Below are positions 3,069 through 42,962 of a stretch of DNA of 64,000 nt, piece after piece (positions within the stretch are counted from its first letter, which is position 1; each line of letters begins with the position of its first letter). The translations under genes and the position numbers were made by a program. A model generated the notes under the pieces. It did no database searches. It was not told the origin of the DNA and saw only the letters and a list, made by a program, of their open reading frames with translations. Location of the stretch: NCBI GenBank assembly GCA_001915385.1, contig MNQK01000031.1, forward strand, positions 133,166-197,165, given 5' to 3'. Source of the DNA: Bacteroidales bacterium 52_46. GTDB taxonomy: Bacteria; Bacteroidota; Bacteroidia; Bacteroidales; Muribaculaceae.

Positions 3069-4205
3069 CTAATACTCTTCCTCCGGAAATTCCACAATCG
3101 TATAACGGTCACTCAACTCATTGTTTTTATCATAAGTAAAGTAACGGGCGTGGCTGTTACGGTGCTGTGGCACATTTGGCGACCAATTACGTTTGAAATA
3201 CATATTTCCTGACTTGAATCTGGTTGAATTGGGCGATTCCTGTTTTCCCAATATCACATAGTAGCTTCTTGACTCCCACACACGCCAGAACCACCACAGA
3301 TATTTGTTGTCCCACGTATCTCCGTACTGATATTGGTTTTCCGTCCCATTTTCTATGCTTATGGTGCGGGTAAACAAGTCGGTGACATAGCCCAGCCGCT
3401 TTCCTCTCTGTTTTTCAAGTTTCTGCAACCCGGCGAGCACGTTCTTGAAATCCTGTCTGTCGACAACCCACCATGTCGACAAAGCGTCCCATGCATCTTT
3501 TCCTGCACACTTTTTATATGAAGTGTATGACTTATATTTGTCGGAACGCGCTGTCGTTTCCCAGCCGTAATCCACGGTCATCATTATGCCGTCGCCTGCG
3601 CTCGAATACTCACGCACTACCAACCAATAATATTCCTTGTCATTTACTTTCTCGCATAAAATATCTCCTATGGCGTATGGTGAAATGATACTGTTATCAG
3701 GCCATGCCTCGGGAGTAAGTATATGCAATGTGGTAACCGTACCCCGCAACCTCGGCATATCGAATGAAATACGGGCAAGTTCCCCGGCGTCACGGCCGCG
3801 GGAATAAGTCACGGTGCCGTTATATCCCAGGTCATAGGTCATGAGGGATTCCGTACCGCTGAGGAAATCTTTTCCCAACTCGCTGTCAGCGAGCGTATGA
3901 CAAAAGAAATCAAAAGCTTCAGCTTCATCTTTCATAGTGCATGACAGTTCGTCAGGAAACGCCTCTTCAAGTGCCTTGCCCCACCGGGGAGTAAGAATTT
4001 CCAACGGCCCCGCAGAATCGATTTCACAAAAAGTAGTCACCAATTTGTCAGCAAGTACATCAGACAGCGGCACAATTTCCGCCTCCTCGTCAGGTTCCTC
4101 GTCGATGACCGGGTCATCGTCAGAACATGCCGTCATGAACGGCAATACAACTGCCCCCAACGCTATGCGGAATATGTTTCTTACGTATATATGCATCTGT
4201 TTCAT
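3069..4205 (-). CDS. Hypothetical lipoprotein (378 aa), Trp/Tyr-rich
   Basis: ORF with signal peptide and lipobox FMTACSDDD. I recognise no conserved motif. It sits inside the lipoprotein operon. Confidence 0.65.
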   Translation of the reverse strand: MKQMHIYVRNIFRIALGAVVLPFMTACSDDDPVIDEEPDEEAEIVPLSDVLADKLVTTFCEIDSAGPLEILTPRWGKALEEAFPDELSCTMKDEAEAFDFFCHTLADSELGKDFLSGTESLMTYDLGYNGTVTYSRGRDAGELARISFDMPRLRGTVTTLHILTPEAWPDNSIISPYAIGDILCEKVNDKEYYWLVVREYSSAGDGIMMTVDYGWETTARSDKYKSYTSYKKCAGKDAWDALSTWWVVDRQDFKNVLAGLQKLEKQRGKRLGYVTDLFTRTISIENGTENQYQYGDTWDNKYLWWFWRVWESRSYYVILGKQESPNSTRFKSGNMYFKRNWSPNVPQHRNSHARYFTYDKNNELSDRYTIVEFPEEEY

Positions 4206-4221
4206 TTTTTCATATTATCGT

Positions 4222-6570
4222 TTAAAGATTGGGATACGTGAAATATCGCGTCCTGAACAGCCGCACGGGATACATTTTGTTGATACCCGATATTACCTGA
4301 GTATCCCATGTATAGTCAGGTTTAAGCACAAGCGCATAACCTTTTGTTGTCGATTTGGCCGACTCCTTGAACGCTATGTAGCAATTGGAATTGTCGGTCG
4401 GCGACGATGTGCCGGTGGAGAAGTATCCGCAGAACTGTGCGTCAAAACCACTCGTACCGCCTTTGAACAACGACTTGGTATTGCGTCCTATATAATCCGT
4501 CAGATTTTCCTTGTCATGTTCGGTAGGGAGGTACCAGTAAAGCGCCATGTCTACGCTTGGCTCACGTTTTGAACCGTAGACGCCCGAGTTGGCCGACAGG
4601 AAGGCCGACCGCTGGTTAAGTATATAGGCATACAGCATATCGGCATTTCCATCGTTATAGATACGCTCTCGACGTGTGAATGACCGTCCGCTCAATGTCC
4701 CGAAATACATGCTCTCCATAATATTCCTTCTTGTCCAGTACCCGGAACCTATCTTAACAACGTCATACATGATATTGGAAGCGTTGAACTGCAGTTGATG
4801 CGGCAACGTCTTTGTATCGGGCGCCGGTCGGCATTTCACGCCGTAGTCCTGTTCGTAAAAATTGCCGTGCATCCAGTAGGCGGTCGTTATGCGGTCGTAA
4901 TAGCCGAAACCCTCTATCGGCTCTACATAACAGGTATTCTCATAGAAGCTGACAAATGCCGGACGATTGCCCTCGCCGTCGCCGGGGAAAAGCCCCTGAC
5001 TGTGGCTCGTGCGGCCGTTCTTTATCGGATAGAATACGGTCACTCGGCGGTCGGTACGGATTTTAGGCACATATTCCGAACAGATTTCAAGCAGCGGAGT
5101 GCCATTGCTGTACATCACCTTCACCAGCGAGCCTGAGCCATCGGCCGGAAACGTGAAATCCTTACTTGTCAGGTCAATCACATAATTGTCAATGCCGAGC
5201 TCCTGGTCGGTATACATGTTGTTGCTTTGGTTTGACATTCCCGCCACAACGTCCTGCACCTCCGCGCGTATTTTCGGGTCAGCAAAAAGATCCCATATCG
5301 GCATGAAGTTGAAATCAATGATGTCGAGATTTTTCTTATTTGATGGAGTATAGACTACCCTCGACAACCATTCCTGCAACAAATTATTGGGAAGCGCCCC
5401 GGTGTCACTAAGCCCGCTTATCGCGTTTTTCAGGGCGGCGCGGGTGTCTGCCGTACCGCCTGCTATGGAGAATGTATAGTCATTTGACATCGAACTCGTC
5501 ACTACCGAATGCGACGATGACGAACTGCTGCCGGTGCTCTTGCCGAATACCCGCGAGCACTGTTCCTCGGCATCCTTTTCAAATTCCGACGCATACGTGC
5601 GGTCGAACGTCACGACATAGTCTATCGAACCGCCGGCGAGTGCCTCGATGACGAGATGCGTGCCGTATGTGTTGACCATGTTTTTGATTTTGTCACGACG
5701 GGTCGAGGAGTTTGCATCAATTACCTTTTTATAATGTTCCCTGAAGCCCTGCGTGAACGGCAGTTCGTCAACGCCATACGTCGCGACAAGATATTCCAGC
5801 ACGCCGCGGTCGATGCTTCGCGACGATACTATCTTATAGAGTCGTGCGTATGCCATATAGCTTTCCGAAAGGTCGTGGGATGTTACCTCCTTAAATCGTC
5901 TTATCGTCTTCTTGACTCCTAAGAAACTGCTCGTTTTCTCCATCTTTTTTGTGAGATGGCTCGACATCTCCTGCATCGAGAAGGCCGACACGATTTCAAA
6001 CTTCTCGCTGCCGCGTATTACCTCCTGCACGCTTTGGAACGTGCTGTCGGAGTCAATGCTGCCCATAAGCGCGGTATCTATAATCCTACCCTGCACGCTG
6101 TTGCGGTTCTTGTACTCGCCGAAAGCGTTGAATCCCCACCCCACGCGATAGTCGCTCATCACGTCGGTATCGGCATTGTCGTCATAATCGCCTTCGCCAC
6201 GCTGATATATCTCTATCACAGCGCGTTTGCGCAGGTCGGGAGCACGGAATACCAGCGTGGCGCGGCGTCCGGCCACATCGTCGTTGTCGTCGGTGCGGAA
6301 TTCCACGATGCCGTCGGCCGGGAGCGTCGACGACGTGAGGTGCAGCCAGTCGGCGTCAGAAGTTATTTCGACGTTACCGGCGTCCCCTGGAGTTACGGTA
6401 AACGAATAGTACCGGCCATGGCTCTCCACTACCGGCAGTTCGTATGTCAATTCCAGCGTGTCTTCGCATTCAGCTCCTGGCAATGCATCATCGTCGGAGC
6501 ATCCGGCAAGACAGAACGCCGCAATGATTGCAGGCAGCAGCCTGCGATATATAAAATAAAGGTTATTCAT
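4222..6570 (-). CDS. MACPF-domain lipoprotein (paralog 1) with N-terminal BACON-like domain and long C-terminal extension
   Basis: 782-aa ORF with lipobox LAGCSDDD. The N-terminal segment SDADWLHLTSSTLPADGIVEF...RATLVF is BACON/Ig-like. The MACPF signature is YGTHLVIEALAGGS, matching Y-G-T-H-x7-GG. The conserved downstream motif MPIWDLF is shared with the two neighbouring paralogs. Confidence 0.8.
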   Translation of the reverse strand: MNNLYFIYRRLLPAIIAAFCLAGCSDDDALPGAECEDTLELTYELPVVESHGRYYSFTVTPGDAGNVEITSDADWLHLTSSTLPADGIVEFRTDDNDDVAGRRATLVFRAPDLRKRAVIEIYQRGEGDYDDNADTDVMSDYRVGWGFNAFGEYKNRNSVQGRIIDTALMGSIDSDSTFQSVQEVIRGSEKFEIVSAFSMQEMSSHLTKKMEKTSSFLGVKKTIRRFKEVTSHDLSESYMAYARLYKIVSSRSIDRGVLEYLVATYGVDELPFTQGFREHYKKVIDANSSTRRDKIKNMVNTYGTHLVIEALAGGSIDYVVTFDRTYASEFEKDAEEQCSRVFGKSTGSSSSSSHSVVTSSMSNDYTFSIAGGTADTRAALKNAISGLSDTGALPNNLLQEWLSRVVYTPSNKKNLDIIDFNFMPIWDLFADPKIRAEVQDVVAGMSNQSNNMYTDQELGIDNYVIDLTSKDFTFPADGSGSLVKVMYSNGTPLLEICSEYVPKIRTDRRVTVFYPIKNGRTSHSQGLFPGDGEGNRPAFVSFYENTCYVEPIEGFGYYDRITTAYWMHGNFYEQDYGVKCRPAPDTKTLPHQLQFNASNIMYDVVKIGSGYWTRRNIMESMYFGTLSGRSFTRRERIYNDGNADMLYAYILNQRSAFLSANSGVYGSKREPSVDMALYWYLPTEHDKENLTDYIGRNTKSLFKGGTSGFDAQFCGYFSTGTSSPTDNSNCYIAFKESAKSTTKGYALVLKPDYTWDTQVISGINKMYPVRLFRTRYFTYPNL

Positions 6571-38249: not shown

Positions 38250-39098
38250 TTACCAGGCGAAATCAAAAGTTTCCTCTTCACTGCCCCATTCGTCAGTTGA
38301 AACGGTTGTCAACTTTATAGGCAGATTCCCGGCATTTAATGTCCATGAGAATGTTTTGTTCCAACTATAGGTATCTTCTTCCGGATCAAATCTCACGTAA
38401 TTATTTGACACCGGAAGCTGCCTTGTTGCCTTACCGAGCAGACCGGCAAAATATGCATATTCCATTTCATCCATATCAATACCGAAAGTATCATCAAAAA
38501 GCATTATACAGCCCTTGTTTTCAATCGCTGAAGAACCATAACCGATTTTATAGTCACCGCCGCAGTTATCTTCTTCAGAGCGAACTTTTACAGCTGTGAC
38601 ATTGCCATCAGTATAGGTTATGTCGGTCACCTCATTTCCGCCTTCGGTACGTTTCATTTTTGTAAGCCGACCGTCTGAATTGTATTCAAACCACCATTCT
38701 TCAATATCACCATCACTTTCAATCTGCCTGCAATATTTTGTAAAACCTGCATCGTTGAGCAACAGATTGAACACATACCTATCCTCGTCATCTTCCACCT
38801 GCATAACGACATCATAAGAATCAGCACGCCCGATGCCTGGATAGGCAAATGTGATTCTTATACCGTCTTCTGAATCATTCATCGATACAACACGTCCGTC
38901 GGCGCCCTTTATTATATTCAATGCGCCTACCTTCGATGGTAATCCGGCAGTGAAAACGTTTGATGGATTTACGACAACCCCGGGATTGTTTCCTCCACCC
39001 GGGACATTATTGTCATCGTCATCATCACTGCACGATACGAATCCTGCGCCGCACGCAACAGCAGCCAAAGCAATTCCTGTAAATTTCAAAAAATTCAT
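38250..39098 (-). CDS. Hypothetical lipoprotein (DUF4595-like)
   Basis: Lipobox FVSCSDDDDD. The start is taken at the internal MNFLKF. The domain name is tentative. Confidence 0.55.
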   Translation of the reverse strand: MNFLKFTGIALAAVACGAGFVSCSDDDDDNNVPGGGNNPGVVVNPSNVFTAGLPSKVGALNIIKGADGRVVSMNDSEDGIRITFAYPGIGRADSYDVVMQVEDDEDRYVFNLLLNDAGFTKYCRQIESDGDIEEWWFEYNSDGRLTKMKRTEGGNEVTDITYTDGNVTAVKVRSEEDNCGGDYKIGYGSSAIENKGCIMLFDDTFGIDMDEMEYAYFAGLLGKATRQLPVSNNYVRFDPEEDTYSWNKTFSWTLNAGNLPIKLTTVSTDEWGSEEETFDFAW

Positions 39099-39226
39099 TT
39101 CTGTAAATGTTTTTATGTCCTCCCGTCTCAAAAGGACGTATTATAAATATAGATTTTAATTGTGGGGGGGCGAGACTACGTCATATCCGATGATAAGACA
39201 CCCCGGTCTGATCATACACGGTTTAT

Positions 39227-39589
39227 TCAAATATCGGGCTCGGTTTTCGCGATGCCGGTCAGATTTGTCAGTAGCAGCAGGTATACCATCAGGATAAGGG
39301 CTGCGACGATGATGTAGGTTATGACCGAAAAATCGAAAAGCGCAAAAATGACATTGAATGAAATCCCGATAAAGAGAGTTGCCAAAGAGAGTACCCTAAT
39401 ATTGACTCCGACATTGGACGAGTTATATTTTATGCCGATGCCGAACAGAAGTGTCACTAACGTAAGCACTCCTCCGCCTGTTGCAACGCACCATTTACAG
39501 GAGTCTGCTCCGGGAATCTGCCACAGCGCAAGAGCAGCGAGCAGGGCGATAACTGTACAGATAATCGCTTTAGTCACATTGAGTTTCAT
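39227..39589 (-). CDS. Small integral membrane protein (121 aa)
   Basis: Three or four predicted transmembrane helices. The start is taken at MKLNVTK. It overlaps the upstream stop as ATGA. Confidence 0.55.
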   Translation of the reverse strand: MKLNVTKAIICTVIALLAALALWQIPGADSCKWCVATGGGVLTLVTLLFGIGIKYNSSNVGVNIRVLSLATLFIGISFNVIFALFDFSVITYIIVAALILMVYLLLLTNLTGIAKTEPDI

Positions 39590-39951
39590 TGGCCGAGTAT
39601 TATTATCTTGTTGATTTCGGGAATATTTTTCGCGAATTGCCATGACGGCATACCTGCCCGCCAAAGGAGGGTCTCGCCGGCAATTTTTCCGCGCTTTATC
39701 AGTTCGCTTACCTGCTGCGGGGTGAGGGCGCCTACCTGCAATCCGTCGATTACCGCATACCATTCAAAGCGGGCAGCGGGCTGAGTGACGGCGCTTTGGC
39801 CGACGGCATTCTGTCCGGTAGTCCCGGCATTGACGCCGGCGACGGCGGTGTTGTTCATGACATGGTTCATGGTGCTGACCATCTGCTGCGCCAGACTGAG
39901 TCCGAGGCCAAACTCCACAAGCCGGTCAATACTGCTGAAATCTGTTGACAT
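39586..39951 (-). CDS. DUF4339 (GYF-like) domain protein
   Basis: The C-terminal WYAVIDGLQVGALTPQQVSELIKRGKIAGETLLWRAGMPSWQFAKNIPEI matches the DUF4339 pattern. Confidence 0.6.
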   Translation of the reverse strand: MSTDFSSIDRLVEFGLGLSLAQQMVSTMNHVMNNTAVAGVNAGTTGQNAVGQSAVTQPAARFEWYAVIDGLQVGALTPQQVSELIKRGKIAGETLLWRAGMPSWQFAKNIPEINKIIILGQ

Positions 39952-39999
39952 ATATAAAGAAAGGTTTTTGATAGATTAATGAAGTTTTTACAGCCTTTG

Positions 40000-41397
40000 C
40001 TACGGCAATGGAGGCGGCATCGCACCGGGAGTCGCGCCCGGCACGGGTGGAGGAACAGTCGGGAAAAGCGGCTGCAGTTCGGCCACCTGCCCTGCGGGAG
40101 TCCACGCGGGCATGCCCTGCGCCCATACCATCGTTGCGGGGTCGATGCGCCCCTGCTGCACGAGCGGCCGGAGCTGAGATACTTTGTACGGACCGCTTTG
40201 CTGTCCGCCAAGCACAACGTAGTACGATGTCTCCGATGCGCCGGGCACGGGCGGAGGTGTCGCACCCTGTTGCGCGGGTGGCTGCTGCCAGTATTGGTTC
40301 ATCGTCTGCCCCATATTGTTGACCATGCCGGCCATCTGATTGCCGAGGGCGCCCCCTACGGCCATACCGGTCATAAACTGAGCGGGATCGATACCGCTTG
40401 AACCGGAACTGCCACCCCAGCCTCCTCCTGAGCCAAGATTCTGAGCCGCAGTCTGCATCACGTCGGCCTGCCGGTCAAGAGCATGGGCACCGATAAACTG
40501 CGTTTCGGTCTGCAATCGCTGCGCACGCTGAGCCTCCTCGCGCTGGATACGGGCTGTTTCGGCTACGTTTTCGGCATTGATACGCTGCATGTCGTTCATA
40601 TTCCGGATATTGGCGGCAGTCTGCGCATGGATAGTCGAAGTCTGCTGCACGGCAGTGACATCGCGCAATTCGAGATAGCCGGCCGACTCCTTGTCGACTT
40701 CAATGCTCGAGATGTCGAGACGCGAGAGAGTGACGGCAAAATCCTCGAAATCCTCTTTCAGGCGCGGGAGCACAATGTCGTTGATAGCCTCAATCTTACG
40801 CTCTATCTGAAGGACAGGTATACCGTGGTCGGCAGGAGCGTTGACGACGGCTGATTTCACGCGCCGTATCACTGCGTCGCGGACCTGTTCCTTAAAACGC
40901 TGGAGCGAAAAGTCAATCAGCCGATGGGCATAAACGAACTTCTTAGCGTCGGCTACACGGAAATTGATACTGCCCCTGACGGCCATAGGCACGGCGTAAT
41001 CAAGGAACCGCGGATCGAACACATCGAAAAACGGGATGGCGAACTTGATGTTGATTATGCCGGATGTGTTGATATAATACACTTCGGCCTGAAACGGGGA
41101 CTCGCCACCGAATGCCATGCCTACAAGCGACGAGAGCACCGGGAAATTGGCGGTCCGGATAGTGTCGTCATACGGGCCCTCGATAATGTCGAGACCCTGC
41201 CCTTGCTGCTTGTATACGAACACAGCCGACTCGCCGGCCTTGACGCGCAGCGAGGAGCCGTAGCGTATGGCATTCTCGCGGGTAGTGGAATTGACATCCT
41301 GTCCGGCAGGACGCCATTTCCATACAAGATAGTCATCTTCATCGCAGCGGATCACATTAATCATTCCGCCGCTTTTACCTCTTCCGAACAGTCCCAT
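40000..41397 (-). CDS. SPFH/band-7 domain protein with Gly/Gln-rich linker and C-terminal DUF4339 domain
   Basis: The N-terminal 270 aa are SPFH-like. The C-terminus YYVVLGGQQSGPYKVSQLRPLVQQGRIDPATMVWAQGMPAWTPAGQV is DUF4339-like. Confidence 0.75.
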   Translation of the reverse strand: MGLFGRGKSGGMINVIRCDEDDYLVWKWRPAGQDVNSTTRENAIRYGSSLRVKAGESAVFVYKQQGQGLDIIEGPYDDTIRTANFPVLSSLVGMAFGGESPFQAEVYYINTSGIINIKFAIPFFDVFDPRFLDYAVPMAVRGSINFRVADAKKFVYAHRLIDFSLQRFKEQVRDAVIRRVKSAVVNAPADHGIPVLQIERKIEAINDIVLPRLKEDFEDFAVTLSRLDISSIEVDKESAGYLELRDVTAVQQTSTIHAQTAANIRNMNDMQRINAENVAETARIQREEAQRAQRLQTETQFIGAHALDRQADVMQTAAQNLGSGGGWGGSSGSSGIDPAQFMTGMAVGGALGNQMAGMVNNMGQTMNQYWQQPPAQQGATPPPVPGASETSYYVVLGGQQSGPYKVSQLRPLVQQGRIDPATMVWAQGMPAWTPAGQVAELQPLFPTVPPPVPGATPGAMPPPLP

Positions 41398-41402
41398 ACG
41401 CG

Positions 41403-42653
41403 TTATGCCTTGATTTTAAATTTACTTGCTGTTTCTTCGATTTCGCGGAGCAAACCCGGGTCGTCCTTAAGCACGATTCTCGCTTTTATAAGGATTTCTA
41501 CGGCCTTATTCTTATACGCCTTGGCAATTGTCTTTTCCATTTTATCAGAATTCATCATCCACGAGTATTGGGAATTTGTAGCGCAAGTCGTGAATAAATC
41601 CAGAATATCGGTTTTATTTGTCGGCACGGGAAAATTCTTTATGGCCATAGCCTGCGCGTCAGTCACCTTATCATGATAAATAGAGCCATTAAGCGATGAT
41701 ATATACATACTTAAAAGTCCATTGCCTTTTTTCGGAGCGTTCTCCGCTTTTTCACGCGCTTCTTCGATTTTTCGTGCAAGCCGCTCCGACGCTGTTCCCT
41801 GGTTTCCGGCCATACCGACAGGATATTCATATCCGCATTCTGGACACGATGTGGCGAGCTGCTTTACCGGAGCGTTGCAATGTGGACAACGATCAGGTGT
41901 GTTGCGTTTCTGTGGTGATGGTGCCGGAGCAGCTGCGCGCATTGCGGCCAATTTTGCAGCCTCCGCTGCGCTCTGCTCTTGTTTTTGCATGCGCGAAAGT
42001 TCCTGGCGCCGCTCGTAGAGACGAGCTTCGAGCACCATGACAAATTCGTCCATAGCCACACCTTCGGCCTGAGCGTTGCGGATGAGCACCTGACGCTCGA
42101 GGTCGCTGATTTCGCCGTCGGCCACCGCCGATGCGATAAGGGCATTGAGTTTTTCGGAGAATCCGTTGGAATTGCCGGCAACAGGCGTTGCCGCAGGAGC
42201 GGCCGGAGCCGGATTAGCCCACGGTACAGGGGGAGCGGCCGGGCGAGGTATCTCAGGGGCGAACAGGGCCGCGACTTTGGCGACTTGCCCTGCCGGACGC
42301 CATTCGCTCATACCCTCGATATATACGTAAGTATCACGCGTGAGAGAGCCTTGCTGTATCATTTCAATAAGTGTGGCCTTTTCGTATGGGCCGTAGGTCG
42401 TGCCGTTGACAGCCACAAGGACGCTTAGACTTTCAGCCGGTGCAGGGACCACGGGGGGTGGCGGAGTGCGGAGCGGATTACGGCGTAAAGAGTCAGCTGC
42501 TTTGTCGACAGTCTTGTCAACCGCTTTGTCGACAACGTCGCCCGCGGCTTCATTGATGAGTTTGTCAGCCACAGTTCCGGTAATGCTGTCGGGGAGATAG
42601 TCGCCTATTACATTTCCGGCAACATTTTTAATCATTTTCTTCAAGAGACCCAT
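41403..42653 (-). CDS. Multidomain hypothetical protein: DUF4339 domain + TerB-like segment + zinc ribbon
   Basis: DUF4339 segment SVLVAVNGTTYGPYEKATLIEMIQQGSLTRDTYVYIEGMSEWRPAGQV. TerB-like segment ADGEISDLERQVLIRNAQAEGV. Zinc ribbon CPHCNAPV...CPECGYEY. Confidence 0.6.
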   Translation of the reverse strand: MGLLKKMIKNVAGNVIGDYLPDSITGTVADKLINEAAGDVVDKAVDKTVDKAADSLRRNPLRTPPPPVVPAPAESLSVLVAVNGTTYGPYEKATLIEMIQQGSLTRDTYVYIEGMSEWRPAGQVAKVAALFAPEIPRPAAPPVPWANPAPAAPAATPVAGNSNGFSEKLNALIASAVADGEISDLERQVLIRNAQAEGVAMDEFVMVLEARLYERRQELSRMQKQEQSAAEAAKLAAMRAAAPAPSPQKRNTPDRCPHCNAPVKQLATSCPECGYEYPVGMAGNQGTASERLARKIEEAREKAENAPKKGNGLLSMYISSLNGSIYHDKVTDAQAMAIKNFPVPTNKTDILDLFTTCATNSQYSWMMNSDKMEKTIAKAYKNKAVEILIKARIVLKDDPGLLREIEETASKFKIKA

Positions 42654-42891
42654 AGATATTGTATTTTAAGGTGATAATGACATTTTAGAAAATCGGGAAA
42701 GATGTTATGCGAAGTTATATCAAATGTGCCGCAATTCATAAGTCCATTTTGTTCCAATTTAATCCAATTATATCCACTGCGTCATGAAGATTTACGTTAC
42801 ACCGGATTACAGGCGGTATCAACATAAAAATCTGTTCAAAAAAGTTTTGGAAAATTCAGTTTAAGGTATTGACACGTAAGGAAAAATATTG

Positions 42892-42899
42892 TATCTTTG
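42892..42899 (+). promoter_or_regulatory. Bacteroidetes -7 promoter motif (TATCTTTG) with an upstream TTG, ahead of thrS
   Basis: TAnnTTTG consensus with a TTG about 20 bp upstream. Confidence 0.5.
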
Positions 42900-42962
42900 T
42901 GACGATTTTTGCACAGTTGTCACGTTGTAGGTGACAATCAATTGATAATCAAAAACATAGAG

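Follow-up and report, generated by a model that had tools for sequence, protein, structure and literature searches.

What do four adjacent genes of Bacteroidales bacterium 52_46 accomplish together, given that three of their products carry the same GYF_2 (DUF4339) domain and the fourth is a membrane protein? The genes, here called A to D, are flanked by the housekeeping genes thrS-infC-rpmI-rplT in the stretch of DNA that was analyzed (64 kb; hereafter the window), and all four open reading frames are present and co-oriented on the minus strand:

42654..42908, no strand assigned: divergent intergenic region between gene A and thrS, 255 bp
41403..42653, minus strand: gene A, 416 aa, soluble; no transmembrane segment (hydropathy)
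40000..41397, minus strand: gene B, 465 aa, SPFH protein of the YdjI type with GYF_2 in its tail; soluble, no transmembrane segment
39586..39951, minus strand: gene C, 121 aa, Met-rich N-terminal segment (residues 13-37) and GYF_2 (residues 64-117)
39227..39589, minus strand: gene D, 120 aa, four transmembrane segments; no named family

The dense packing described in an earlier sequence-only reading was borne out, with 5 nt between A and B, 48 nt between B and C and a 4-nt ATGA overlap between C and D. The longest reading frame of D (39227-39763, 178 aa) would overlap C by 178 nt. The ATG at 39589, joined in ATGA to the TGA of C, is almost certainly the true start and yields a product of 120 aa, the length recorded by gene callers for the identical family. 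The 255-bp region between A and thrS is presumed to hold the promoter of the operon; a sigma-70 scan of this region, which does not cover Bacteroidota promoters, gave no minus-strand match and overall no more than was obtained with shuffled sequences. Hydropathy analysis placed transmembrane segments in D only (residues 5-23, 35-53, 60-78 and 89-107), in agreement with its description as a small polytopic membrane protein.

A survey of gene neighborhoods, in which one genome per species was scanned (A2 scan) and the 80 best of 433 confirmed relatives were kept, made clear that the genes are syntenic and not scattered: in these 80 other genomes the cassette is found mostly in the order A-B-C-D on one strand. 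The hosts include Bacteroidales, Flavobacteriales, Saprospiraceae and Treponema. Where enough flanking sequence was available (66 loci), the core of A was accompanied by C and D in 53 cases, A by D in nine, C by D in two and A by C in two. The flanks are unrelated, with TonB/ExbD and AhpC in one genome, serS and mfd in another and thrS in the window, and any further gene family is shared by at most 12 of 82 loci. The four genes travel as one unit while their neighbors change, and we conclude that they form a self-contained operon that is conserved across the Bacteroidota and a few other lineages.

In B the following features were distinguished:

40687..41364, minus strand: SPFH domain (Band_7_1, PF13421), residues 12-237; Pfam E 3.4e-24
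40438..40683, minus strand: single long helix (…IQREEAQRAQRLQTE…), residues 239-320; AF2 model, pLDDT about 90
40291..40377, minus strand: conserved Gly/Met-rich segment FMTGMAVGGALGNQMAGMVNNMGQTMNQY, residues 341-369; modelled as disordered
40237..40260, minus strand: proline-rich motif TPPPVPGA, residues 380-387, just before GYF_2; P381-P383 and P385 at least 90% conserved
40063..40230, minus strand: GYF_2, residues 390-445; Pfam E 6.4e-19, pLDDT about 85
40003..40053, minus strand: proline-rich C-terminal tail PPPVPGATPGAMPPPLP, residues 449-465; P450 and P451 invariant in the B family alignment

The assignment of B as an SPFH protein with a C-terminal DUF4339 is thereby upheld. Its model was matched by Foldseek to HflK/C, stomatin, prohibitin, flotillin and QmcA over 285-330 columns (E 3e-8 to 5e-6), and the fold matches also included the GYF domain of GltJ (7z3c). 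By BLASTP, B shares 24% identity with the YdjI of the B. subtilis type (272 aligned positions, E 2e-12), and YdjI matches PF13421, the Pfam family of B, at E 8e-43. B is thus a soluble, cage-type member of the YdjI/SamI group of SPFH proteins. In the model its SPFH domain and 80-residue helix resemble subunits of the cages built by HflK/C, stomatin, prohibitin and flotillin, the helix corresponding to the wall or coiled-coil element of such cages. Within the Gly/Met-rich segment, G348, G349, A350, G352, Q354, M355, A356, G357, M358, N360 and G363 are invariant, and six of these columns are so in a further B alignment too. Given that B is of the cage type and that D is the only integral membrane protein of the set, the earlier suggestion of a membrane-associated complex appears reasonable.

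The product of gene A runs from a disordered N-terminus via a PPPP motif, GYF_2, a PPVPW motif, a TerB-like half-domain and a zinc ribbon to a helical C-terminal domain:

42444..42467, minus strand: proline-rich motif TPPPPVVP, residues 63-70, upstream of GYF_2; P66, P67 and P70 at least 90% conserved (44 relatives)
42261..42422, minus strand: GYF_2, residues 78-131; Pfam E 3.8e-14, pLDDT about 90 (AF2)
42219..42242, minus strand: proline-rich motif PAAPPVPW, residues 138-145, downstream of GYF_2; P141, P142 and P144 invariant (44 relatives)
41979..42170, minus strand: TerB-like half-domain (…AVADGEISDLERQVLIRNAQ…), residues 162-225; most conserved part of A
41835..41888, minus strand: zinc ribbon CPHC…CPEC, residues 256-273; C256, C259, C270 and C273 invariant (family alignment A1)
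41406..41792, minus strand: all-helical C-terminal domain (NFPVP…AYKxKAxQVLxKARIxLKDD), residues 288-416; no named family

The TerB-like motif that had been read in A is a genuinely conserved segment, but its likeness to TerB is partial, comprising about 40-55 residues, and is below threshold in the window protein. Across the 44 relatives of family alignment A1, ADGEISDLERQVLIRNAQ is invariant or nearly so. The strongly conserved ADGEISDLER segment matches only the last third of the TerB/DUF533 profiles, below threshold. DUF533 hits the window protein at E 0.0074 (residues 162-204, sub-threshold) and 42 of the 44 relatives (best E 1e-6), and the DjlA profile gives E 0.01. The TerB profile itself (PF05099) has no match to the window protein; in distant relatives of A its positions 58-115 or 78-114 (of 118) were matched, once above threshold. 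The helices of this region (residues 167-241) are modelled by AF2 with pLDDT above 90, and no solved TerB structure was retrieved for A, by sequence or by fold. The CxxC...CxxC ribbon, by comparison, was confirmed by its four invariant cysteines: Zn_ribbon_3 matches 43 of the 44 relatives (best E 2.6e-8), and the zinc-ribbon models of Pfam reach E 3e-4 to 7e-4, sub-threshold, in the window protein.

GYF_2 is significant in C (E 8.9e-13) as in A and B, and since these are the only reading frames in the 64-kb window with GYF profile matches, the repetition of the domain is not a matter of chance. The three DUF4339 proteins of the sequence-only reading are therefore found in the window, but the conserved arrangement is a different one. 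The A of most lineages begins directly at the TerB-like segment and is without GYF_2, so that the zinc ribbon and GYF_2 reside on separate proteins; the GYF_2 of A is limited to the clade of the window and scores higher with the GYF profile of the B tail than with that of C in 41 of 42 relatives. We consider it a lineage-specific copy of the B tail, and the ancestral A a GYF_2-free protein composed of the TerB-like segment, the zinc ribbon and the helical domain.

The GYF_2 domains are accompanied by conserved prolines. A PPP or PPxP motif precedes the GYF_2 core of B in 75 of 82 orthologues and a proline-rich tail follows it in all 82, while those variants of A in Prevotella and Bacteroidaceae that are free of GYF_2 keep PPPP(P) in an N-terminal extension. 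It was remarked in 2007 that proline-rich stretches often flank the GYF domains of bacteria and that transmembrane proteins are often their neighbors (PMC2034487), and a zinc ribbon lies next to the domain in around 44% of bacterial GYF proteins (PMC11135422). The GYF domain of GltJ, which is the top PDB fold match for the GYF_2 of A (7z3c), binds a proline-rich sequence of AglZ with micromolar affinity (PMC11135422), and does so without using the canonical eukaryotic binding site. Our guess is that PPPxP is the ligand here; in the AF2 monomer models of A and B the proline motifs have low pLDDT and are undocked from GYF_2.

C aligns collinearly to residues 340-445 of B (BLASTP, E 6e-10) and is a 'tail-only' relative of B, although the likeness of its N-terminus to the Gly/Met-rich segment is weak (hhalign probability 11%). 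Most loci have a small GYF protein after B. In other lineages C frequently ends in …LTPPP; the C of Bacteroidales bacterium 52_46 has no proline motif. The family of D comprises 77 loci, 76 of them in other genomes. No Pfam match was obtained with seven members tested, and D is on this basis not a TPM protein.

The sequence-only reading had regarded the function of the cluster as unknown. It can be narrowed, as B falls in the Pfam family of YdjI/SamI, a soluble SPFH protein that is recruited by membrane partners (PMC8581546). We give about even odds to the proposal that the operon encodes a membrane-tethered SPFH scaffold at the cytoplasmic face of the inner membrane, which is assembled through GYF–polyproline contacts and serves membrane surveillance. 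B would oligomerise into a ring or cage and might depend on D to reach the membrane, much as YdjI depends on YdjG and YdjH. Since the GYF domain of GltJ binds the proline-rich sequence of AglZ, the proline-rich motifs in B and A are proposed as ligands of the GYF_2 domains, and such contacts would create a network that is multivalent and open to regulation. C, which has the tail but no scaffold, could compete with or cap these contacts, and the acidic residues of the TerB-like module of A, together with the zinc ribbon, may provide the sensing or regulatory input. Most speculatively, the physiological role could be the surveillance and organization of membrane and envelope, in analogy to SamGHI but without PspA.

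Other explanations have to be weighed against the proposed scaffold. The SPFH protein could form a cage by which a membrane client encoded elsewhere is enclosed or regulated (an FtsH-like protease, a transporter or a synthase), with D as an NfeD-like partner and with A and C as client or regulator adaptors instead of stress sensors. Such a mode of action is that of the HflK/C-FtsH, QmcA-YbbJ and stomatin complexes, and the B model aligns best to HflK/C, stomatin, prohibitin, flotillin and QmcA; SPFH proteins are described as scaffolds that regulate membrane complexes. We nevertheless consider a client cage improbable, given that B, unlike HflK/C, stomatin and QmcA, lacks an intrinsic membrane anchor, that signatures of NfeD, an OB-fold or a protease are missing from D and that no candidate client gene recurs in the neighborhood of the 82 loci. 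Functional independence of the four genes, with GYF_2 merely a common domain, has next to nothing in its favor: it is already contradicted by the conserved synteny, as gene order and co-occurrence are kept across orders and even phyla while the flanks change, and the tight spacing and the confinement of GYF_2 to this part of the window point the same way.

TerB-domain proteins are found in stress and defence contexts, from which the earlier hint at a stress or phage-defence island derived. A phage-defence or abortive-infection module would use the TerB-like protein as a sensor of infection and the SPFH protein as the effector at the membrane. PADLOC indeed returned weak matches of A to Cas12f, HEC-08 and LmuB (E 2e-4 to 0.016), which span residues 168-307, i.e. 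the coiled helix, the zinc ribbon and the beginning of the C-terminal domain, but these fall short of any defence protein, and B, C and D had no significant match. No effector enzyme, be it a nuclease, an ATPase or a helicase, is encoded in the cassette; the genes around it are of housekeeping type or vary, without recurrent defence genes, and the cassette is conserved as a unit across a phylum, in at least 433 species-level genomes. Homologues of B were seen on 14 of 72,556 plasmid records and on only two of 50,697 phage records; these two are metagenomic contigs named 'Bacteriophage sp.' that lack annotation, and one of them carries the mark UNVERIFIED. Nothing marks the cassette as a phage-defence island, and we regard a defence role as very unlikely; the hint was not sustained. 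A polarity or motility switch like the ZnR-GYF module of GltJ, which would link an envelope machine (Bacteroidota gliding or T9SS, for example) with a G-protein or scaffold in the cytoplasm, strikes us as equally unlikely. Besides the fold match, the combination of GYF_2 and zinc ribbon in A corresponds to the architecture described as a switch module (PMC11135422). The NCBIfam model of GltJ gave weak partial matches to A (E 0.004), B (5e-7) and C (2e-9), yet these are confined to the GYF domain (16-37 bits versus a cut-off of 450), transmembrane and TonB-C parts are missing from A, none of gld, spr, mglA and aglZ recurs among the neighbors, and zinc ribbon and GYF_2 are carried by different proteins in most lineages. 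The cassette is, furthermore, found in Treponema and in gut Bacteroidales (Prevotella, Alistipes, Muribaculaceae), the latter of which are believed to be non-gliding.

In the searchable literature we found no description of the four-gene cassette, the TerB-like/zinc-ribbon partner, the tail-only C or the four-transmembrane partner. The combination of SPFH/Band 7 and GYF had been listed by Balaji and Aravind (2007), as an architecture only (gi 32472385; PMC2034487). In comparison to the TerB-fold modules (TerB PF05099, DUF533/YebE and the N-terminal domain of DjlA), the ADGxhsxxEr helix-hairpin of A aligns to positions 66-109 of DUF533 and 133-197 of DjlA; it carries just one of their repeated acidic motifs and is taken as about half a TerB domain, and genes of the ter operon are absent near the cassette. 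GltJ of the Agl-Glt gliding machinery of Myxococcus xanthus has the GYF_2-type domain in common with the cassette proteins and, like A of the window, joins it to a zinc ribbon in one protein (PMC11135422), but it resides in the membrane as part of a motility machine, is controlled by MglA-GTP and binds AglZ, and such partners are absent here. HflK/C-FtsH, QmcA-YbbJ/NfeD, stomatin, prohibitin and flotillin share with the B model the SPFH domain followed by a long helix, and the operons of cage-forming SPFH systems also hold a gene for a small membrane protein, as D here; those proteins are, however, self-anchored by a transmembrane helix or hairpin, and neither NfeD signatures in D nor a client protease gene near the cassette were found.

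This leaves the PspA-YdjGHI (SamGHI) system of B. subtilis, in which YdjI is soluble, requires YdjG and YdjH to form membrane foci and recruits PspA (PMC8581546), and in which SamI holds back SamGH signalling (bioRxiv 10.64898/2026.02.06.704340). The differences are considerable. A pspA gene is absent from the Bacteroidota cassette, the window and the 80 related loci; YdjG is membrane-integral (PMC8581546) and has two TFIIB-type zinc ribbons, whereas A is soluble and has just the CxxC pairs in common with it; YdjH has a TPM domain, whereas D consists of nothing but its four transmembrane segments; B ends in a GYF_2 flanked by polyproline instead of a zinc ribbon; and the cassette has the small GYF protein C in addition. 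As the partners of B and YdjI are not homologous, the functional analogy rests on one shared domain family. Both YdjI/SamI and B are nonetheless Band_7_1 proteins that lack a membrane anchor, each has behind its SPFH domain a stretch rich in Gly, Met, Asn and Gln (the likeness of the Gly/Met-rich part to the YdjI tail being compositional only) and a small C-terminal adaptor domain, and both operons pair the SPFH protein with one or more membrane proteins and a zinc-ribbon protein. The cassette thus looks related to the SamGHI/YdjGHI membrane-stress system of Bacillus, with a different wiring of its parts.

The cassette comprises four genes in the order A-B-C-D, all read from the minus strand:

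41403-42653, minus strand: gene A, an ORF of 416 aa
40000-41397, minus strand: gene B, an ORF of 465 aa
39586-39951, minus strand: gene C, an ORF of 121 aa
39227-39589, minus strand: gene D, with its start taken from an ATGA overlap; the longest ORF here spans 39227-39763 (178 aa)

The TAA of A and the ATG of B are separated by 5 nt, and the TAG of B and the ATG of C by 48 nt. At the C/D junction, the in-frame ATG of D (39589-39587) overlaps the TGA of C (39588-39586) in the sequence ATGA. Given this overlap and the length of 120 aa that is found for the D family in gene-caller records, D was assigned to 39227-39589 and not to the 178-aa ORF. The co-oriented anatomy proposed by the sequence-only reading was right with respect to ORFs, junctions and domains, the start of D being the exception. 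Upstream of the cassette lie the divergent genes thrS, infC, rpmI and rplT; downstream, a lipoprotein-like DUF4595 ORF is followed by a gene for a DUF4924 protein. The DUF4595 ORF (38250-39131, minus strand, just 3' of D) also gave weak RHS/YD-repeat matches, is not kept beside the cassette in other genomes and is probably unrelated to it. Promoter and terminator scans yielded the same counts as shuffled sequences, with an empty minus strand, and a hairpin past the D stop did not exceed shuffled sequence in stability (z +0.78). The module profiles matched nothing in the 64-kb window beyond the cassette ORFs.

Elsewhere in the window, a tmRNA gene adjoins a stretch of low G+C (14700-17000; 0.31-0.39 versus about 0.50 elsewhere) that contains two ORFs:

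14223-14622, minus strand: tmRNA gene (Rfam, 130.9 bits; tag peptide GEKQYALAA)
14750-15214: ORF of the Fur family, inside the low-G+C stretch
15584-16228: ORF of 214 aa matching no Pfam family, inside the low-G+C stretch

Considering that tmRNA genes are common integration sites, this stretch could be a small island remnant.

Protein B had been described from sequence as an SPFH protein with a DUF4339 domain (now GYF_2, PF14237). Both parts were recovered above cut-off in Pfam: Band_7_1 (PF13421) with 86.1 bits (E 3.4e-24; cut-off 24 bits) and GYF_2 with 67.9 bits (E 6.4e-19; cut-off 25.8 bits). The relatives of B number in the thousands, and the Band_7_1 plus GYF_2 architecture is listed for nearly all of them. 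Alignments revealed a conserved order of SPFH part, IQREEAQRAQRLQTE helix, Gly/Met-rich segment, TPPPMPGA, GYF_2 and PPPMP-rich tail, in which the SPFH part is highly and the Gly/Met-rich segment strikingly conserved. Conserved proline motifs bracket the GYF_2 domain: a PPP or PPxP motif was present upstream of its core in 75 of 82 B orthologues from different genomes, and a proline-rich tail followed it in all 82. Candidate proline-rich ligand peptides for GYF_2 in the cassette are TPPPVPGA, PPPVPGATPGAMPPPLP, TPPPPVVP and PAAPPVPW; in the AF2 monomer models, where these segments are of low confidence, they were not seen docked in cis on GYF_2. In the model of B (pLDDT 71.2), the SPFH fold leads into a helix of 80 residues (239-320); the Gly/Met region is disordered, and GYF_2 is predicted with confidence. 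Foldseek aligned it over 285-330 columns to HflK/C, stomatin, prohibitin, flotillin, QmcA and vault cage subunits (E 3e-8 to 1e-4), and the predicted monomer has the alpha/beta domain followed by a long wall-forming helix that marks cage-forming SPFH proteins. In none of A, B and C did a hydrophobic segment reach the threshold for a transmembrane segment. B is an anchor-less SPFH protein of the type of YdjI (SamI), from the Bacillus membrane-stress system YdjGHI (SamGHI), and its model resembles cage subunits.

Protein A carries a GYF_2 domain (52.6 bits, E 3.8e-14; Pfam cut-off 25.8 bits) ahead of what we call the A-core, i.e. a TerB-like segment, a zinc ribbon and a helical domain. Its close relatives, about 98, all derive from Bacteroidales-type metagenome bins. 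In an alignment of 44 of these the best-conserved stretch reads …AVADGEISDLERQVLIRNAQxEG…DEF…, the C-terminal helical domain is conserved as NFPVP…AYKxKAxQVLxKARIxLKDD, and C256, C259, C270 and C273 (CPxC…CPxCG) are invariant. Zinc-ribbon models remained below threshold in the window copy (Zn_ribbon_3/DZR, 20.7 bits; cut-off 27), and Zn_ribbon_3 was matched by 43 of the 44 relatives (best E 2.6e-8); with two CxxC pairs some ten residues apart and a profile match in its relatives, A qualifies as a zinc-ribbon protein.

The TerB-like segment noticed from sequence appears tenable at the level of the superfamily, but only the last helix-hairpin of the domain is represented. In window A, PF05099 (TerB) gave no match in Pfam, DUF533 matched below threshold (residues 162-204, E 0.0074) and DjlA matched weakly in NCBIfam (residues 169-233, E 0.01); among the 44 relatives, 42 matched DUF533 (best E 1e-6). 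When residues 162-416 were used in an exhaustive phmmer search, 1336 representative clusters of the A-core were recovered with E no higher than 1e-3, and 500 with E no higher than 1e-10. Most representatives are 230-290 aa long, with the TerB-like segment starting right at residue 2. PF05099 was matched by six of ten distant representatives, five of them below threshold (E 6e-4 to 6e-3) around positions 78-114 of 118 and one, P0289, above it (31.1 bits; cut-off 24.4) at positions 58-115, so that the A family covers the C-terminal part of the profile only. The AF2 model of A (mean pLDDT 73.8) has a confident GYF_2, confident helices at 167-241, a moderately confident ribbon and a confident helical C-terminal domain, with disordered linkers between the parts. 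Among solved structures, the GYF_2 domains of the cassette matched GltJ and eukaryotic GYF domains; the remainder of A recovered generic helical repeats only, and TerB was not found among its matches. The GYF_2 of A and of B also matched the chloroplast import protein Tic56 (PDB 8z9y_E, 7xzi_F and 7vcf_Q), which suggests that Tic56 has a GYF_2-like domain, a matter unrelated to the cassette.

The presence of GYF_2 on three of the four proteins is correct for the window (A, B and C) but is not the general state; it is a local addition to a four-gene cassette that is itself widespread. In A the domain is confined to the clade of the window (the window locus, L006, L001, L010 and L011), where it is flanked by TPPPPxVP and by PAPPVPW with three invariant prolines. 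It scored higher against a profile of the B tail than against that of C in 41 of 42 relatives, and these scores make it likely that the tail of B was duplicated and joined to A. Some A versions of Prevotella and Bacteroidaceae have N-terminal extensions with PPPP(P) and without GYF_2.

A and B, as well as many extended A variants (in L009, L025, L029, L056 and L071), have a similar start, M-G-[LF]-[LF]-x-K/D-x-[LI]-K, with MGLLKKMIK, MGLFGRGK, MGLFEKLK and MGLLDNLKK among the sequences observed:

42627-42653, in gene A: N-terminal motif, residues 1-9
41374-41397, in gene B: N-terminal motif, residues 1-8

YdjI starts with MSFFRNQL and PspA with MSIIGRFKD. Perhaps the shared start forms a short amphipathic helix that touches the membrane; confidence for this part is low in the AF2 models.

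Protein C (GYF_2, 48.2 bits, E 8.9e-13; Pfam cut-off 25.8 bits) is collinear with residues 340-445 of B (BLASTP, E 6e-10, a value carried mainly by GYF_2), and from this alignment it looks like a B tail without the scaffold. The conserved N-terminus of its family is FFSIDRLVEFGMGMAIAQQMVxTMN; homology of this part to the Gly/Met segment of B is weak and suggestive only (hhalign probability 11%, P 0.0027). In many lineages C ends in …LTPPP, which is absent from the window copy. D, with four hydrophobic segments, is the sole membrane protein of the cassette. It matched no Pfam family, and no NfeD domain was detected at E up to 0.1 in D and six further proteins, either orthologues or C-family controls. 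The D family diverges fast and surfaced only by synteny combined with iterated HMMs: a word-indexed search returned 4 relatives, and iterated HMMs on syntenic loci placed the family in 77 loci, 76 of them in other genomes. Transmembrane segments 2 and 3 are linked by a conserved basic loop, which would, by the positive-inside rule, face the cytoplasm.

To describe the distribution of the cassette, relatives of B were collected from one genome per species. At least 433 species-level genomes carried a B-type protein, and the best 80 of these 433 confirmed relatives were kept. They include a Bacteroidales MAG of 98% identity; the other kept relatives belong to Barnesiella, Prevotella, Alistipes, Muribaculaceae, Bacteroides, Segatella, Flavobacterium, Chryseobacterium, Lishizhenia, Crocinitomicaceae, Saprospiraceae, Lentimicrobiaceae and Treponema. 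Module content was scored with iterated profiles in the 66 loci that had enough flanking DNA. We found the A-core, C and D together in 53 of these, A and D in 9, C and D in 2 and A and C in 2, mostly in the order A-B-C-D on a single strand; in two loci of B relatives, consecutive A-like, B, C-like and D-like genes stood amid quite different neighbours. The cassette is therefore syntenic in relatives, as the sequence-only reading required, and not scattered. When all flanking ORFs of 82 loci were clustered, no further family recurred near the cassette in more than 12 loci, so the conserved unit consists of exactly these four genes.

Variation around this unit was observed in both directions. 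Outside Bacteroidota, in L063 and L070 (Treponema) and L079 (a 'proteobacterium' bin), what is left of the cassette is a zinc-ribbon plus helical protein, B and D; the TerB-like segment and C were not detected in these three loci, and the B of L079 has 574 aa and two GYF_2 domains. This hints at a minimal set of the C-terminal half of the A-core, B and D. In some lineages the set of modules has grown locally: extra paralogues (TerB-like proteins of 370-580 aa, second A copies, and larger proteins of 185-309 aa with one or two GYF domains) were found upstream of A in L013, L034, L037, L075 and L078, and downstream of D or between B and C in L021, L025, L068 and L082.

Given this synteny, chance adjacency of four genes can scarcely be credited. 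The hint of a stress or phage-defence island, drawn from the TerB-like segment, was not borne out either. A PADLOC-DB v2 scan of A to D and two neighbours gave nothing meaningful: B, C and D had no match better than E 0.89, and A had weak partial matches (E 2e-4 to 0.045, most within residues 168-307), none amounting to a match to a defence protein. Effector enzymes are absent, the 82 loci hold no recurrent partner beyond the cassette, the flanks are housekeeping or variable, and the distribution is phylum-wide. Homologues of B are rare on mobile records, with 2 phage and 14 plasmid records recovered by tblastn. The cassette is not a defence island, and as an explanation a phage-defence module is very improbable. 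The best 'phage' record (L086, MT835670.1 9466-20833) is an UNVERIFIED, unannotated 22-kb 'Bacteriophage sp.' metagenomic contig from human faeces, in which genes at 4050-4967 and 5001-6416 encode an A-core protein (zinc ribbon and helical domain) beside a B homologue of 46.7% identity; D was not detected there.

An SPFH cage serving an unlinked client, for example a protease or a transporter, would be compatible with the fold matches of B, but there is no linked client gene and B has no anchor of its own, which makes this reading unlikely. A motility switch like that of GltJ is highly unlikely, as the two have only the GYF domain in common and as gut anaerobes and Treponema carry the cassette. 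Against the GltJ model (NF033761, 671 positions; cut-off 450), A, B and C scored 16.2, 29.2 and 36.9 bits, with B and C matching in the GYF region only.

The reading that we prefer is that the four proteins, encoded by a conserved unit, form a membrane-associated SPFH complex, which we consider quite probable. By analogy with known SPFH systems, B would assemble into a ring or cage that is docked to the membrane via D. PPPxP motifs of B and A may be bound by the GYF_2 domains of B, of C and, in the lineage of the window, of A; such contacts would act on the flexible tails by cross-linking or gating them, with C possibly competing as a tail mimic. The acidic half-TerB module and the zinc ribbon of A could provide regulatory input. 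The output might, speculatively, be surveillance of the membrane or envelope, similar to SamGHI but without PspA; we lean modestly against such a stress-surveillance role for the cassette. For the whole package of observed features, assembly and surveillance output the chances appear even. More ambitious, and improbable in our estimate, is a phylum-wide Bacteroidota membrane-integrity machine in which a soluble SPFH cage sits on D as its four-transmembrane receptor, multivalent GYF-polyproline 'velcro' between the tails of the subunits sets the state of assembly, and tuning comes from C as a tail-only competitor and from A, whose half-TerB and zinc-ribbon protein would sense a metal or membrane-proximal signal.

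SPFH proteins organise membranes in all domains of life, and to our knowledge the study of how anchor-less members of the YdjI/SamI type are recruited and regulated is only starting, in one Firmicute. The cassette would add a second, differently wired example, with carriers of B-type proteins including major gut genera and groups (Prevotella, Alistipes, Bacteroides, Muribaculaceae), and its function would attach to three unnamed families, the A-core, C and D. If the cassette handles membrane stress, this bears on the tolerance of gut Bacteroidales to bile, detergents and antimicrobial peptides; if it is a membrane-integrity machine, it would represent a new principle of SPFH-scaffold assembly and the first function of bacterial GYF_2 outside Myxococcus motility. 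GltJ is the only experimental case of a bacterial GYF_2, and a classical Psp system is probably missing from most Bacteroidota.

A literature search found no paper describing the four-gene cassette. A paper of 2007 had already pointed out the SPFH plus GYF architecture and the proline stretches next to GYF domains of bacteria (PMC2034487), an adjacent zinc ribbon occurs in about 44% of bacterial GYF proteins, and the GYF domain of GltJ binds a proline-rich sequence of AglZ through its beta-sheet face (both PMC11135422). For comparison with YdjGHI, a B. subtilis-type pspA-ydjGHI locus was retrieved from a metagenome via primer sequences printed in PMC8581546. YdjI is soluble, requires YdjG and YdjH for its membrane foci and recruits PspA (PMC8581546); SamI acts as a brake on SamGH signalling (bioRxiv 10.64898/2026.02.06.704340). 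In the retrieved locus, Band_7_1 (146.9 bits, E 8e-43) of YdjI is joined by a zinc ribbon at the C-terminus; TFIIB-type ribbons were found in YdjG and a TPM domain in YdjH. The Gly/Met-rich segment was rejected as a motif common to B and YdjI, the resemblance being compositional only (B-family HMM, -1.7 bits with heavy bias), and the score of YdjI against the SPFH HMM was set aside as circular, since YdjI was already inside the iterated alignment. A cannot be equated with YdjG, as the alignment is limited to the CxxC pairs (E 0.15), nor D with YdjH, as D lacks a TPM domain or any Pfam match. No PspA homologue was detected in the window or in 80 related loci (phmmer with the PspA of L005; L001-L003 and L006-L085). 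B aligns to YdjI at 24% identity over 272 positions (BLASTP, E 2e-12), and both are soluble SPFH subunits without a membrane anchor. In contrast, pspA, an ESCRT-III-like gene, belongs to the YdjGHI/SamGHI operon and is missing from the cassette, as are homologues of YdjG (two zinc ribbons, an NTF2-like domain and a transmembrane segment) and YdjH (TPM plus transmembrane). The cassette is best filed as an SPFH scaffold system of the YdjI/SamI type with non-homologous partners and a proposed GYF-polyproline wiring.
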